IMG/VR virus record: IMGVR_UViG_2667527717_000005
Location: 1-6,092 of that record
Direction: 5' to 3' (one strand)
DNA length: 6,092 nt
Source of the DNA: a virus
Lineage: Duplodnaviria > Heunggongvirae > Uroviricota > Caudoviricetes
Shown here: positions 1 through 6,092 of the stretch, in pieces
How positions within the stretch are numbered: the first letter of the stretch is position 1
Layout: each line of letters begins with the position of its first letter
Position numbers and translations under genes: made by a program
The notes under the pieces: generated by a model
What the model was told of the DNA's origin: nothing
Seen by the model: only the letters and a program-made list of their open reading frames with translations
Databases searched by the model: none

Positions 1-139
1 ATCCGCATTTTACTGCCGCTGACGCTGGCCATCCTCGACGGCATGTCCGTACGCGTTGCGGATGAAGTTTTCATTCTGCCGCTGAATGCTGTCATGGAAT
101 CACTGTAACCCCGCGAAGCCGATCTGCATCCACTGGCCG
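1..139 (+). pseudogene. cheA: 3' fragment of a cheA-like chemotaxis histidine kinase gene (end of ATP-binding domain into start of CheW-like P5 domain); in-frame TAA at 106-108; homology ends at 139/140
   Basis: Plus frame 1 translates as IRILLPLTLAILDGMSVRVADEVFILPLNAVMESL*PREADLHPLA. This matches, from memory, the conserved segment of enterobacterial CheA that follows the G2 box (as I recall ...TIRILLPLTLAILDGMSVRVADEVFILPLNAVMESLQPREADLHPLAGGERV...). The frame stays CheA-like for 10 codons after the TAA, then diverges at 139/140. Fragment runs off the left edge of the window. Confidence 0.55.
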
Positions 140-994
140 AAGTTTCACAATCCCTTTTTGTGTCAGGGTACCGTCAGGAATACTCGTAATCTGTCCCCAG
201 GGGTGCGTATGACTACCCGCAGCCTTACTATTCGCCAGGTCATATGCCGCCTTCACCGCGCTCGGAGTCGCCGCCTCTGTCGTGCTGTTGCTATTGGTCG
301 CGTTACTAAGCTTCACAATCCCTTTTTGCGTCAGTGTGCCATCTGGTATATCAGTAATCTGACTCCAGGTATGACGATGATTTCGAGCCTCAATCAGTGC
401 CGCTTTCACCGCTTTTGGCGTAGCCGCTTTGGTTTCGTCATCACTGTCAGTGGCGTTACTCAACTGCGTAAAGCCTTTTTGTGTCAATGTAGCATCAGGG
501 TGGTTAGTCGAATGTTCGTGTTCATCCAGTTGCGAATCGACGTAATCCCGTGTTGCCAGCACAATACTGGGATCAACGGTGAGTGTTACCGCAGTCGTGT
601 TGGACACTTCCATAATGAGACGAATGCAAACTTGCTTACCGCAGCCGCCGGGTAATAGCGGTTTATACGACTCCGGGAATTTACCGATAGCAATGAGTTC
701 ACCATCGGTATCAAAAACGCCGACTTCACGTATATACCAGCCGCCGATATTTTCGGGCAGTACAAGTTCCGCAATTAACCAGCTAGGATTATTGGGCGCA
801 ACTGTTAATGTATTTAAATCACCGCGCCAGACCTCATGGCGTAATTTAGTTTGACTCGCCGTGGGTTCATAATATTGCCCACCGCCGTCTCCAACGGCCA
901 TCTTTTGCAGATGCAGTTGTTTTTTATCCGCAAGAGCACTGGCAATTTTTGCCATCCCTCTATTGGTCAGGAGGGTATAAAATTCATTATCCAT
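92..994 (-). CDS. Phage tail fiber protein, truncated (P2 gpH-like N-terminal baseplate-attachment domain plus about 2.5 fiber repeats; no receptor-binding C-terminal domain)
   Basis: 300 aa ORF. N-terminal motifs MAVGDGGG, HEVWR, IAELVLP and ESYKP follow the pattern of the P2 gpH / Mu S tail fiber N-terminal domain. It is followed by repeats of the TLTQKGxxxLSNAT...AATPxAVKAA type. Start ATG at 994 has GGAG 6 nt upstream. Residues 286-300 (RPVDADRLRGVTVIP) and the TGA stop are encoded by the antisense of the cheA-like fragment. Confidence 0.85.
   Translation of the reverse strand: MDNEFYTLLTNRGMAKIASALADKKQLHLQKMAVGDGGGQYYEPTASQTKLRHEVWRGDLNTLTVAPNNPSWLIAELVLPENIGGWYIREVGVFDTDGELIAIGKFPESYKPLLPGGCGKQVCIRLIMEVSNTTAVTLTVDPSIVLATRDYVDSQLDEHEHSTNHPDATLTQKGFTQLSNATDSDDETKAATPKAVKAALIEARNHRHTWSQITDIPDGTLTQKGIVKLSNATNSNSTTEAATPSAVKAAYDLANSKAAGSHTHPWGQITSIPDGTLTQKGIVKLRPVDADRLRGVTVIP
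140..520 (-). repeat. Imperfect tandem tail-fiber repeats inside the fiber gene (2 full units of about 51-56 codons plus a third unit cut off after 13 codons)
   Basis: Plus-strand motif ttcacaatccctttttg occurs at 144-160 and 312-328 (168 bp apart), with the related cctttttgtgtca at 474-486. Extended alignment of 140-200 against 308-368 is about 73% identical. At protein level: HPDATLTQKGFTQLSNAT..., DIPDGTLTQKGIVKLSNAT..., SIPDGTLTQKGIVKL|. Confidence 0.75.
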
Positions 995-996
995 AA

Positions 997-1629
997 TTAC
1001 TCCGGGTAAATAGATGTAATTTCAAGGCTCCATTGCCCTGTTCCGTAATAGATTGATGTGTTTTGCTGTACTTCCCGTATCTGGAAAGGTAAAACCGACG
1101 TCAGTTCACCACCATAAAGTGCACAACCAATAACAGGAATAGCACTTTGGTTAATGATCCAGACAATTAATGCTTCCAGTTTTGAACGTGTGTTTTTATA
1201 TTTATGAATGAGTTCTACCAGATTATTGAAAAGGTTTTCATCCATGCCTTTATCCACCAGCTCTATATCAACCTTAAAAAAATAAGCCTTCCCCCCATAT
1301 TCAAACCATTCTGAAATAGTTCCTGGTAATGAGAGTATTTCCAGCACCCGCCGTACCGCCCAAATCGTTCCTTTATATTTATGCAGCTCAATGGCTTGCT
1401 TAATTAGCTCGCGCTTCTCCCGTTCATCGGTGGTAAATAACCAACCTTCCAGCCCCTGAACGTGAAATTGTTCTGCAAGGGCTGGTAATGCCGAAGCATC
1501 AACCAGGTCGACCAGATAAACCATCAACGCCGTAAGATCGAGTTGGGCAAAACGCTCGGCGGCGATATTTGCCAGAATCGAAAAACGCTCATCGCTGGCA
1601 AGCGGCGGCGGTGGCAGCAATTTATCCAT
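997..1629 (-). CDS. Baseplate/tail protein, P2 gpI-like
   Basis: 210 aa ORF directly upstream of the fiber gene, the conserved gpI position. Contains an HKYKGTIWAVRRV motif resembling the gpI-family HxxGT(I/V)xA(I/V)RR region. Its stop TAA (997-999) lies 2 nt from the fiber ATG, and its start overlaps the J stop by 8 nt (ATGGATAAA). Confidence 0.8.
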   Translation of the reverse strand: MDKLLPPPPLASDERFSILANIAAERFAQLDLTALMVYLVDLVDASALPALAEQFHVQGLEGWLFTTDEREKRELIKQAIELHKYKGTIWAVRRVLEILSLPGTISEWFEYGGKAYFFKVDIELVDKGMDENLFNNLVELIHKYKNTRSKLEALIVWIINQSAIPVIGCALYGGELTSVLPFQIREVQQNTSIYYGTGQWSLEITSIYPE

Positions 1630-2737
1630 CGCTAACTCCGGCGATCGTTACGTCTATTGCAGTGCATTCCGCCCATTCATGCGCCTGCAAAATACGTTTT
1701 GTAGGCAAGTTCAGCACAACGTCATAGACGCCATCGACCTGTAACACTTTGATTATCTGGTTTGGCACAATGTCCTGCCCCAGATGTTTCTGCCGCTGTT
1801 GCGTCCAGAGGCTAATCGCTTTACGCGCCGCAGCCAGAGTTGTCTCCTGATCGGCGGTGGTAAACAGCGTTAGCTGCGCACGGATCTCATACGGCACTCG
1901 AAGAGCGCATTTCGCACTCACTTTGTCGGTCAGCGGACGTTTTTTCTCCTTGCTAACCTCCTGTTCGATTTGCGCGAGCAGTTCTATTCCCGGCAGTCCG
2001 TTCAGGGTTAGCGGGTAGATCTCCACGCAGCCTTCTGGCAATCCCTCGTCCGGCCCCAGTACTGCAACGTCAATAATCGACTGGCTTACGGAAAGCGTAT
2101 GAAAGCGGTAGGCACCATAGCTGCCCGCATTACTAAAGCTTTCTGGTGCCAGTTGGATACGCTGGCGCAATGCGTCATCGCTCTCTTCACCGCAGCCGCC
2201 CGTTGACGCAGTCAGGTTGATTACGTTGATGTCATAATGACCAATCCTGTCGACCAGAGCGCTAATTTGTGCAGGCTGCCAGCCGTTACCCTGTTCACCT
2301 GCTGCGAGGCTGGTGGCAGGAACGGCGATATGCAAACTCCTGGCCGGGAGCAGAACATCTTCATCGGTGGCGAACATCACGCTATCAGAGGCACTGGCCC
2401 GCGTCCCCTGGGGAATCAGGATATTGCTGGTATACGCACTGACAACCGAAAACTGCAACGTCGTTTTTGCTGACTGCGCAGGCAAACGATGAACGCCCAC
2501 CAGCTCCCCTAAATAATCCAGCATTGGCGCGCGGGAATACGCGACCAGGTTCTGTTTCGCCGCTTCCTGAATGGCGATGCGTACAAGGTTTTCACGATAG
2601 GCAAAAAGGTCAATCAGCAACCGCTCGGCCTGTGCCGGGTAGAGCTTTTTGCCGCTGGCATCTTCGTATTGCGCAATCATCTCGCTGGTAATTTGCGCAG
2701 GATCGCGTTCAATAAAATTGGGTTCGGCTATCGCCAT
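1622..2737 (-). CDS. Baseplate J-like protein (P2 gpJ / Mu gp47 / T4 gp6-like wedge protein)
   Basis: 371 aa ORF with a central SFSNAGSYGAYRFHTLSV region that resembles the conserved gpJ-family core. Sits between the W-like and I-like genes as in P2. Start overlaps the W stop by 10 nt. Confidence 0.85.
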   Translation of the reverse strand: MAIAEPNFIERDPAQITSEMIAQYEDASGKKLYPAQAERLLIDLFAYRENLVRIAIQEAAKQNLVAYSRAPMLDYLGELVGVHRLPAQSAKTTLQFSVVSAYTSNILIPQGTRASASDSVMFATDEDVLLPARSLHIAVPATSLAAGEQGNGWQPAQISALVDRIGHYDINVINLTASTGGCGEESDDALRQRIQLAPESFSNAGSYGAYRFHTLSVSQSIIDVAVLGPDEGLPEGCVEIYPLTLNGLPGIELLAQIEQEVSKEKKRPLTDKVSAKCALRVPYEIRAQLTLFTTADQETTLAAARKAISLWTQQRQKHLGQDIVPNQIIKVLQVDGVYDVVLNLPTKRILQAHEWAECTAIDVTIAGVSDG

Positions 2738-3087
2738 AACACCTCCGTTGAGTTGATTACGCCGTCAGCGGCGCGCCATTGCACACGTAACGTCAGATGT
2801 TCACCGTCGATTACAGGTGTCACCTTCAGCAACCGGCAGCGCGGTTCCCACTGGCGGATGGCCTCTACCGACTCCCGTACCACATGCGGGATCGCCCGCT
2901 CGATGGGATAATCGATGTAGTGCCACAAATTGCTGCCAAACAGCGGTCTGTGGGGATCACTGCCGCGCGGTGTACGCAGAATGATGTGTATTGCCTGGTG
3001 AATATCATCCAGTCCGCAGACGTATTCTTCAGGCCGCTGCAAGGCCGGTTGCCAGTGCAGCGTTGAGGGGCGTGTTTTTGTGTTCAT
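2728..3087 (-). CDS. Baseplate wedge protein, P2 gpW / T4 gp25-like
   Basis: 119 aa ORF, the size and position typical of gpW (between V and J). Contains a gpW-like IxxILxTPxGS core (IHIILRTPRGS). Start ATG at 3085-3087. Confidence 0.8.
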   Translation of the reverse strand: MNTKTRPSTLHWQPALQRPEEYVCGLDDIHQAIHIILRTPRGSDPHRPLFGSNLWHYIDYPIERAIPHVVRESVEAIRQWEPRCRLLKVTPVIDGEHLTLRVQWRAADGVINSTEVLWR

Positions 3088-3150
3088 GAGGGTATTTTCG
3101 CCCTGACCGGGCTGTGGAGATATTAAAGCGATTTAGAAAACTGATTGATT

Positions 3151-3184
3151 AAAAAGAGAAAACCCGCTATCAGGCGGGTTAAAA
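3151..3184 (-). terminator. Candidate rho-independent terminator or attenuator directly after the spike gene, between V and W
   Basis: On the minus strand, immediately 3' of the V stop: TGA-c-tttt-AACCCGC-ctgata-GCGGGTT-TTCTCTTTTT. That is a 7 bp GC-rich stem (3161-3167 pairing with 3174-3180), a 6 nt loop, then a run with 8 of 10 T. Seen directly in the sequence; function is inferred. Confidence 0.45.
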
Positions 3185-3185
3185 G

Positions 3186-3887
3186 TCAGTGTGAATGGTG
3201 GTTGGAGTTGCCACCGCTGTCCTGCAATGCGCCGCTGGCCTGAACGTTGCCGATCACGTTGACATTGCCGGTTATCGTGGCGGCGTTACCGATGCCTCCA
3301 CTTCCTGCCATCCCACCAAGCCAGGTGAGTTTTTTCATCACCGTGACGTTGCCGGTAAAGGTACTGAGCGGTGCGTCTACCGTTACAGCCATCGCTTTAA
3401 CATCGACCTTACTGGCTTCAATGCTGACGTCGGTGGCTTTCACATCAACAGTGTCGGAAGTCACGGTGACGTGTTGGGCTTTAACCTCAACGTTGGGCGA
3501 TATCAGGCTGGTACGGTCGATAACCTCAATCACGATTTTTTCGATACCACCGTTAATCGTAAGCTGGTGGGTGCTGCGGTCATATTCAAACGCTGCGCCA
3601 TCGGAAAACTGGACATAGCGTTTGTCGCGCGATGCTACTGGCGCGGTATCTACCGTTGAATATACTGCGCCCAGCACCACGCCATCTTCACCGTTATCAT
3701 CCAGCAGAACCTCCACCTGCTCTCCCATGTCCGGTAGCCAGTAGTCTTTATTGTCCTGGGAATTGCGTTGAAGTACCGCAAGCCAGTTGCTCTTCAGATT
3801 GTCACACTCTGGAAGCGTGACTCGCACCCGAACGCTGGTTTCGTCAATATCGCTGATAATCCCCGTTTGCCGGGTTACTCCTTTCAT
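3186..3887 (-). CDS. Baseplate assembly protein V (central spike, P2 gpV-like)
   Basis: 233 aa ORF with an N-terminal OB-fold-like region (WLPDMGEQVEVL, GVVLGAVYS), then short V/T-rich beta-helix-like repeats (VDVKATDVSIEASKVDVKA, GNVTV, GNVNVIGNV), and a C-terminal His cluster NHHSH. A strong Shine-Dalgarno AAGGAGG lies 5 nt upstream of the ATG. Confidence 0.88.
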   Translation of the reverse strand: MKGVTRQTGIISDIDETSVRVRVTLPECDNLKSNWLAVLQRNSQDNKDYWLPDMGEQVEVLLDDNGEDGVVLGAVYSTVDTAPVASRDKRYVQFSDGAAFEYDRSTHQLTINGGIEKIVIEVIDRTSLISPNVEVKAQHVTVTSDTVDVKATDVSIEASKVDVKAMAVTVDAPLSTFTGNVTVMKKLTWLGGMAGSGGIGNAATITGNVNVIGNVQASGALQDSGGNSNHHSH

Positions 3888-3900
3888 ATTTCCTCCTTAC
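3888..3900 (-). promoter_or_regulatory. Ribosome-binding site for the V gene, overlapping the stop codon of the D gene
   Basis: Minus strand reads TAAGGAGGAAATATG: the D stop TAA is followed directly by AAGGAGG and then the V ATG after a 5 nt spacer. Confidence 0.7.
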
Positions 3901-4937
3901 TGGCTGGTCGCTGGCCCGCGTGACACGTCGATTTCAGTGGTATAGCCGCTGCGCACAAAACTGTGAGTAGATTTATCAATCAGCCACTGACCGGAAAGCA
4001 CGCCAAAATCGGTCAGTTCAATTTTATTGCCCGCCGTCAGTTCCGGGCAGCCCATCATTGTGAGCGTTCCGGTTTGCTGATATTCGTTGTGGCTGTCGAG
4101 TGCAGCGTTGGCCTTTGCCTGTGCTGCGCCAATGTCCGTCGCCCGACTGTTCAGTTTTAGCGTGTCGGCACTGGTGCCGACTCCACGGGCAGACGGTTTT
4201 TGCTGGCTGTCGTGGGTGTAGATAACCAGTTCTTTTTTCTTACTATTTTGATGCTGTACGGTGGCGTTTTTGTAGATACGGTTAATGGTATCTTTGAAGG
4301 TGAAATGCGAAACGTCTTTGCGGTCGATCGTTTTTACCGGTGCCAGGCAGCGCAGCGTGGGTAAATGTGAAAAAATCAGCTCTTTTGTCGTCACTTTTAC
4401 GGCATAACCATATTCACTGGCCAGACGTTTGAGAAATCCAACATCGGTTTCACCATACTGCGTTACCCGGTCGATGGTGAGCGGCTCGATTTTGCCCACC
4501 AGTTTCAGACCGTGCGTTTGCGCGATACGGCTGGCGATAGCCGAAAGCGTCGTCTCTTCAAAGCCCTGGCTGTTACGCGTGCGTAGCGCCTGATTGACGG
4601 AAGTGGCGATGCCATCAATATTTACCGTAGAAGGTGGCGATGAAATATCAATTTTATCAATAATATACTGACCACAATCGAGCAGCTTTTCCCCCTGATA
4701 ACCCATATGCAGCGCCAGCGTATCGCCTTTGCCGGGATACCACTCTTTTATCCAGCGTCCATCGGTGTCATCCAGTGTAATCGCGATGGTATCCGACTCG
4801 TTTTTAATACTGTCCTGGTAACTGATGCTGGTGACATAAGGCGTGATGTCATAAGTGATATCTTTATGCCCATACCAGAGGGTAAAAATGGGCGTGAGTG
4901 TTGCAAAGACGCCGCCAGTTACGCTTATCTCAGCCAT
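3897..4937 (-). CDS. Tail protein D (P2 gpD / Mu gpP-like late control D protein; baseplate hub)
   Basis: 346 aa ORF in the conserved position between X and V. Size and layout are consistent with the gpD family. Start ATG (4935-4937) lies inside the last codons of X (13 nt overlap), with GGAG upstream. Confidence 0.8.
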   Translation of the reverse strand: MAEISVTGGVFATLTPIFTLWYGHKDITYDITPYVTSISYQDSIKNESDTIAITLDDTDGRWIKEWYPGKGDTLALHMGYQGEKLLDCGQYIIDKIDISSPPSTVNIDGIATSVNQALRTRNSQGFEETTLSAIASRIAQTHGLKLVGKIEPLTIDRVTQYGETDVGFLKRLASEYGYAVKVTTKELIFSHLPTLRCLAPVKTIDRKDVSHFTFKDTINRIYKNATVQHQNSKKKELVIYTHDSQQKPSARGVGTSADTLKLNSRATDIGAAQAKANAALDSHNEYQQTGTLTMMGCPELTAGNKIELTDFGVLSGQWLIDKSTHSFVRSGYTTEIDVSRGPATSQ

Positions 4938-5134
4938 GGTGGGATCTCCGATAAGGTTTTATTGACGGAAATGACCGGAATGATGAGCTGAATACCGGAA
5001 GGCAGTACCGGATAAATGGCGACATGTGGATTGGCTGCGATAATGCGTTCATAAGCCAGTGCATCGCCGTAGTAATGCCAGGCCAGGTTATCCCAGCGTT
5101 CGCCATCGGTGGTGATATGTTCAAGGTATCGCAT
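4925..5134 (-). CDS. Tail protein X (P2 gpX-like small LysM-like protein)
   Basis: 69 aa ORF with a WHYYGDALAYERIIAANP motif resembling the gpX-family YYG...AANP signature. Its ATG shares a base with the U-like gene stop (TAATG at 5132-5136). Confidence 0.8.
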   Translation of the reverse strand: MRYLEHITTDGERWDNLAWHYYGDALAYERIIAANPHVAIYPVLPSGIQLIIPVISVNKTLSEIPPWLR

Positions 5135-6087
5135 TACCAGCTCCTCGTAATGGTCGCGGCAGCAAGCTGGCTCACTGCGGGAGTGGTTTGTTGTACCGTT
5201 GTTCGTGCCTGATCAACCAACGTTGCGGCTTTATCAAACGTCGCTTCGGCGATGTTGCTGGCAATGTCGTCGAAAAGTGTCTGAGCATGGTCAACCAGCG
5301 TACTGGCGTCATTGGCGCAGTCCCGTATACCTGGCATGTTACCCAGTAAAGCTTTAATCTGAGCCGACAACGCTTTTGGGAGTCCTGCCAGCATTTGCAG
5401 ATCCATTGGCTGTTTAAACAGGGTTTCGATGGCGTCGATAGTCTTTTTCAACGACGTAATTATCTTTTCACACTTTTCTTTTAACGCTTTGGCCTCTTTA
5501 ATCAGTGCTTTCACTTTTGCCACTGTTTTTTTAATATCTTCAATGGTTTGCGCCAGTTCATCGAGCATCTCTTTGGCTTTGCGCATACCTTCTTCAATGG
5601 CGTTCAATATCTGATACAACCAGGACTCCACCTTATTCGGAAAATCGCTCGCCTTTTCCTCGATATTAGGCTCCTGGGTGGTAATTGCCGGGGGCAGCAG
5701 TGGGTTTTTCGGATCGCCGGTATACTCCTGGAGCGACATTGTTCCGCTTTGGGCAATGACATTGCCCCAGGGATCGGTGTGCTGGTGAGTGGCGGTTAAC
5801 TCTGTAATTACAAACCAGCCGCGATAATCTCCGTTGCCAAACACCAGCGCCATTGCTTTGTGAGCAAGCATGGCTTCACGCAGTCGATTCAGCTCTGTTG
5901 TGGGTTGGCAAAACTGGCTGTGCAGGGAAAATTCCAGCGCCAGCATATCCAGCTTATCGCCAATAAACTGCACGCCGGGTTTGCCTTCTATACGGGCATG
6001 TGTGGCGTAATCCACGCCCATTGTGCTTTTAAAGCCGTCCCAGAATGTGACAACTTTAAATTCAATCTCTCCTAAAACGGCATACAT
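5134..6087 (-). CDS. Tail protein with a P2 gpU-like N-terminal region and a long coiled-coil C-terminal extension (possibly Mu DNA-circulation-protein-like)
   Basis: 317 aa ORF. The N-terminus (MYAVLGEIEFKVV...GDYRGWFVITELTATH) resembles gpU-family proteins and the gene sits directly upstream of X and D as in pyocin-type clusters. The C-terminal 170 or so residues are K/E/A-rich with heptad-like periodicity. Start ATG at 6085-6087 is 5 nt from the window edge, so the true start is not certain. Confidence 0.6.
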   Translation of the reverse strand: MYAVLGEIEFKVVTFWDGFKSTMGVDYATHARIEGKPGVQFIGDKLDMLALEFSLHSQFCQPTTELNRLREAMLAHKAMALVFGNGDYRGWFVITELTATHQHTDPWGNVIAQSGTMSLQEYTGDPKNPLLPPAITTQEPNIEEKASDFPNKVESWLYQILNAIEEGMRKAKEMLDELAQTIEDIKKTVAKVKALIKEAKALKEKCEKIITSLKKTIDAIETLFKQPMDLQMLAGLPKALSAQIKALLGNMPGIRDCANDASTLVDHAQTLFDDIASNIAEATFDKAATLVDQARTTVQQTTPAVSQLAAATITRSW

Positions 6088-6092
6088 CAGGC

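Follow-up and report, generated by a model that had tools for sequence, protein, structure and literature searches.

The window, by which we mean the whole 6,092-nt stretch of DNA that was analysed, brings together two loci: a fragment of cheA on the plus strand (positions 1–139) and a module of tail genes on the minus strand (140–6092), which between them account for every nucleotide and leave no insertion sequence (IS) in the window. By exact look-up of the fusion protein encoded across the join, the window was recognized as an entire contig, CDRS01000334.1 (6,092 bp), of assembly GCA_000939135.1. The tail module matches positions 4,625,273–4,631,225 of Escherichia coli A10 on the minus strand with a single mismatch, at window position 1203, and its genes, all on the minus strand, encode a GpU-like protein with a coiled-coil tail (5134–6087), X (4925–5134), D (3897–4937), V (3186–3887), W/gp25 (2728–3087), baseplate protein J (1622–2737), tail protein I similar to gpI of P2 (997–1629), and the first part of a tail fibre. 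The T at 1203, where A10 has C, gives the tail protein I allele WP_044691065.1, which is rare, being found on nine contigs only, and is therefore a useful marker of the clone. The GpU-like protein is 317 aa long: a P2 GpU domain (residues 6–123) is followed by some 190 aa of coiled coil with only weak Pfam matches; one source names an identical protein a chemotaxis protein, which is probably a misannotation.

The corresponding cluster of A10 is about 16 kb long, lies between lysC and yjbD/rluF/pepE, and comprises Mor, a holin, a transglycosylase, Gp37, sheath, tube, tape measure, GpU, X, D, V, W, J, I, the fibre and DUF4376. It contains no head, replication, integrase or transposase genes. Like contractile tail modules of the P2/Mu type and R-type tailocins, it encodes GpU, X, D, V, W, J, I and a fibre, arranged as in Mu-like tails, and the headless cluster has the appearance of a candidate R-type tailocin in Escherichia. 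It occurs in about 183–197 of the 5,426 complete E. coli genomes at the fixed lysC-yjbD site, its proteins are also named in E. fergusonii, E. albertii, E. marmotae and E. ruysiae, and no isolated phage matching it above about 81% identity was found.

The fibre gene is interrupted in the window. An ORF at 92–994 on the minus strand encodes a fusion of 300 aa in which residues 1–285 of the fibre, with the Phage_tail_fib and Phage_fiber_2 domains, are followed by 15 codons of antisense cheA and a stop; by exact look-up, the complete fusion protein is known only from the window's own contig and from CCBS01000432.1. Next to the join lie two fibre repeat units of 168 nt (140–307 and 308–475), and both A10 and other contigs of the same clone, described below, have extra 168-nt units beyond the point at which the fibre is cut in the window. 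A stretch of 50 nt (216–265) recurs exactly in the distal fibre. The tandem repeat as a whole has a period of 168 nt (56 aa) and about 2.8 copies, and in the close genomes CH4796 and 2021CK-01784 the fibre is longer by 168 nt. Many draft assemblies stop inside this repeat, giving rise to numerous fibre proteins of 233–400 aa labelled as partial.

The cheA piece, at the extreme end of the contig, corresponds to nt 1501–1639 of the gene (codons 501–546). It aligns without gaps and colinearly with the annotated cheA of A10 (plus strand, 2,125,401–2,125,539, within an intact motA-motB-cheA-cheW-tar-tap region) with 138 of 139 nt identical, and the similarity ends abruptly past position 139, after codon 546, which bears out the original prediction that a truncated cheA remnant lies here. 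By megablast, a match annotated as cheA was found for this piece in 5,377 of the 5,426 complete E. coli genomes, where the best five matches reach 99.3% (one mismatch) and none is identical. Its first frame reads IRILLPLTLAILDGMSVRVADEVFILPLNAVMESL, then a stop, then PREADLHPLA. In CheA, Pfam places HATPase_c at residues 372–508 and the CheW-like P5 domain, through which the kinase is linked with CheW and with the receptors, at 514–640; the fragment runs from the last part of the P4 kinase domain through the linker into P5, of which it holds about the first 33 residues. The open frame that should continue through P5 to residue 654 is absent from it, with a TAA at codon 536 and homology lost after codon 546. 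In the 90%-identity protein cluster that holds the 654-aa CheA of A10, there are also FlhA proteins of 692 aa, including the representative, an oddity of the clustering that is unrelated to the window.

The sole difference from A10 in this piece is a T for C at position 106 (cheA nt 1606), which turns the CAA codon of Gln536 in the 654-aa protein into an in-frame TAA at 106–108. The original prediction had proposed a single C-to-T nonsense change at a glutamine codon, followed by ten codons that still read as CheA, and the nucleotide alignment agrees on each point, with TAA standing against CAA and the match running ungapped to position 139. Relative to A10, the cheA piece thus differs at one of its 139 nt, the tail module at one of its 5,953. 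A natural terminus of cheA at codon 536, the objection raised with that prediction, is ruled out because P5 spans residues 514–640 and a TAA at this codon occurs in no genome searched: the 31-mer centred on T106 has zero matches among the 5,426 complete E. coli genomes, and the stop was absent from the species-representative genomes. The nonsense allele is present only on CDRS01000334.1 and CCBS01000432.1, which possibly derive from one sample. Among 15 billion proteins, to which Logan assemblies of this clone contribute, there is no CheA truncated at residue 535 (the A10 allele, looked up exactly with each of the two start codons). CheA 1–500 and four partial fusion peptides predicted from what Logan contigs with k=31 should contain were likewise not found by exact look-up, and each of these absences, that of CheA 1–535 included, is a weak negative.

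Between positions 139 and 140, the 546th codon of cheA is joined to the middle of the fibre gene, after fibre codon 285, in an inversion-type orientation. The junction is blunt, with 0 nt of microhomology, and the parental sequences on either side differ at the flanking bases. In A10, about 2.5 Mb separates its partners, with cheA on the plus and the tail cluster on the minus strand, and the junction was found neither among the 5,426 complete E. coli genomes nor among the species-representative genomes. Several routes to such a join were rejected. An inversion at the fibre by an invertase of the Gin/Cin/Pin type does not agree with an A10 cluster that has neither an invertase nor an alternative fibre segment, or with a window in which no inverted repeats were found. 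Mu-like transposition is at odds with a cluster that holds no transposase, integrase or head genes and sits at the fixed lysC-yjbD site, and the same evidence rules out a mobile prophage inserted beside cheA and followed by a simple deletion. A de Bruijn mis-join through a shared k-mer fails because no sequence is common to both sides of the junction. By eye, no common restriction site was seen in the sequences flanking the junction, positions 2433–2435 (a second break site, see below) or the fragment ends, and no unusual folding or hairpin was found at these sites.

The second contig that carries the junction, CCBS01000432.1 (2,435 bp, GCA_000938175.1), is identical to window positions 1–2435 and so shares its TAA, its junction and its end at cheA nt 1501. 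Both drafts are fragmented, since their contig numbers reach at least 334 (CDRS) and at least 432 (CCBS). No relevant literature on the contig accessions was found. The recurrence of one junction, one T and one contig end in two deposited assemblies speaks for a real rearrangement private to the isolate, in which cheA codon 546 and fibre codon 285 would have been joined without homology, in inversion type, across some 2.5 Mb. Both genes would then be truncated, with the C-to-T change either an earlier, selected loss-of-function allele or a product of error-prone break repair; CheA would be left without almost all of P5, the mocha operon would be severed from cheW and beyond, and chemotaxis would be lost. 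A homology-free join needs reads that span it, the substitution is one of only 8 among 414 possible that give a stop, and assemblies as fragmented as these allow a coverage gap 139 nt from a genuine junction. Against this, the contig halts 139 nt into an otherwise unique gene, and the substitution and the breakpoint are at most 33 nt apart, yet the adjacent 5,953 nt hold a single change. The absence of CheA 1–535 from the protein collection also argues against a real lesion. Moreover, on the K-12 map, with cheA at about 1.97 Mb, lysC at about 4.23 Mb, oriC at about 3.92 Mb and dif at about 1.59 Mb, the inversion would leave a strongly disfavoured imbalance, with replichores of roughly 0.7 and 3.9 Mb.

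A further objection to a real rearrangement comes from other assemblies of the same clone. The carriers of WP_044691065.1 include CDRV01000159.1 (GCA_000937355.1), CCBT01000187.1 (GCA_000939335.1) and a Logan contig of run ERR13952081, and the prefixes CDRV and CCBT are close to those of the junction contigs, CDRS and CCBS. All three are free of mismatches to the window over the parts that they share with it (140–5259, 140–2433 and 236–6092, respectively). CDRV01000159.1 and CCBT01000187.1 cross the junction site into a 589-aa fibre identical to that of A10, after which DUF4376, yjbD, rluF and pepE follow; the clone therefore has the normal arrangement. In these sister assemblies the locus is intact and the number of contigs is lower. 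The CCB contigs, which come from the older assemblies, are shorter than those of the CDR pair, and each of the two is broken at window-equivalent positions 2433–2435; judging from these sizes and breaks, the CDRS and CCBS assemblies may represent one sample or library. If, on the other hand, each goes back to an isolate and a library of its own, the junction is present in real DNA. With fibre and context intact in the sister assemblies, we regard a private rearrangement as unlikely, and slightly less probable still is its fuller form, in which the join would be a possible footprint of error-prone break repair, with the nonsense mutation 33 nt from the break and with chemotaxis and the tail particle both inactivated.

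One of the sister contigs has a foreign end of its own. Positions 1–136 of CCBT01000187.1 are 100% identical to ldtA (A10 1,989,856–1,989,991; gene nt 573–708) and are fused to the middle of the baseplate gene J between window-equivalent positions 2433 and 2434, with 1 nt of microhomology. The partners are on the same strand, and the join is of the deletion type; as it would span 2.64 Mb, it is not real and cannot represent a simple viable chromosome. J runs uninterrupted through the same point in the window, in CDRV01000159.1 and in the Logan contig, and it is at this site, window positions 2433–2435, that CCBS01000432.1 ends (2435). A repeat as the cause of these breaks was rejected, the site being single-copy in A10, and no notable secondary structure was found there. 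This ldtA end is analogous to the cheA end, differing from it in length by 3 nt, and its unreality weighs against taking the cheA join as a real rearrangement. In this batch, two of the approximately five distinct contig ends that were inspected carry 136–139 nt from a distant locus, a pattern that speaks for an artefact of a systematic kind (chimeric molecules in the library, or mis-extension where contig ends are open) and not for biology.

We therefore favour, with a probability of about 0.7, the explanation that a chimeric contig end, about one read in length, accounts for the cheA piece and that the T in this piece is probably an error. The source would be an E. coli clone very close to A10, with cheA and the lysC-yjbD cluster on opposite sides of the chromosome. 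Its short-read assembly would have failed across the 168-nt tandem repeats of the fibre, leaving an open contig end for this reason at the very place where cheA is joined, and a read-sized piece of cheA, derived from a chimeric library molecule or from mis-extension, could have stayed on this end. The piece would be of low coverage and would have carried the C-to-T change, and with it the TAA, as an error, which is the most likely origin of T106; a private SNP is less likely. The window resembles chimeric or mis-extended short-read contig ends in that a terminal piece of about one read (139 nt, and 136 nt in the sister) from a distant, non-homologous partner is attached by a blunt join, that assemblies of the same clone read through the site without it, and that a similar end recurs in the batch. 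Unlike typical ends of this kind, the identical end occurs in two deposited assemblies, which counts against an artefact. So does the proportion of stop-giving substitutions in the cheA stretch (8/414, 1.9%), which is more suggestive of selection than of a chance error, and so do the distances from the contig end of 139 nt to the junction and 105 nt to T106, which would require a Velvet k of 140 or 106, both even, and fit no odd k. It likewise counts against an artefact that a de Bruijn assembler cannot invent a homology-free join, so that there must be reads across the junction.

An intermediate possibility is that only the junction is artefactual and that the TAA is a genuine private SNP caught by the chimeric read. 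CheA would then be truncated at residue 535 with its kinase core intact and P5 missing, and the strain would be non-chemotactic. Selection, whether in culture or in hosts, commonly favours loss of function in genes for motility and chemotaxis, and a random error yields a stop with a chance of only about 2%, both of which are in its favour. The prior for a real SNP within 139 nt is, however, also about 2%, given one SNP per approximately 6 kb relative to A10, and the 535-residue protein is missing from the protein collection. In addition, if the T were present in the true cheA, a graph assembler would be expected to merge the paths and not to end at position 1. We consider a private SNP improbable, distinctly more so than the private rearrangement. 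Compared with the E. coli gene, the cheA piece is colinear with codons 501–546 but has a TAA at Gln536 and a foreign junction after codon 546, and whether the T is an error or a SNP, the contig provides nothing reliable on whether the cheA of the strain works.

The original prediction went further and saw the stop as fitting a non-motile, genome-decaying lineage such as Shigella-like bacteria, without claiming to identify the host from the window. Shigella and non-motile E. coli do carry flagellar and chemotaxis pseudogenes formed by nonsense mutations and rearrangements, and the window is like such pseudogenes in its premature stop and in the truncation of a chemotaxis gene. A decay of the Shigella/EIEC type would mean that, in a non-motile lineage rich in IS elements, an IS had inserted at cheA nt 1500 and a rearrangement had cut the gene at nt 1639, with the remnant left between them, and it could draw on the contig numbers of at least 334 and at least 432, which resemble those of IS-rich genomes, and on the ending of both contigs at one base of cheA. 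Neither contig end, however, has IS sequence, the source names for the proteins of the window are all Escherichia and none is Shigella, and the closest complete genomes are ordinary E. coli with mot and che intact. The sister assemblies of the clone are less fragmented and have an intact locus, and the allele is in no other genome, in which respects the window differs from Shigella-type pseudogenes. There is no evidence for Shigella-like decay, and we hold this explanation to be highly improbable, the least likely of those considered. The proposal that chemotaxis is probably lost was not supported either: the cheA piece stands at the end of a small draft contig, its partner across the homology-free join belongs 2.5 Mb away, and the junction site is crossed without interruption in other assemblies of the clone, one of which has the analogous foreign end of 136 nt.

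Were the lesion real, it would be of a known kind and not novel, within a large rearrangement private to the isolate. A CheA cut at residue 535 would retain P1–P4 and lose nearly all of P5, so that the cells would be non-chemotactic, and the truncation of the fibre would disable the tail particle. In the window, the problem was exposed by assemblies of the same clone and by a second foreign end of the same size class. When a small draft contig ends in a piece of a gene, a stop within that piece should be scored as pseudogenisation only with read-level support, and the same support is needed before such a terminal stop can serve as a basis for inferring lifestyle, such as a non-motile, Shigella-like one.
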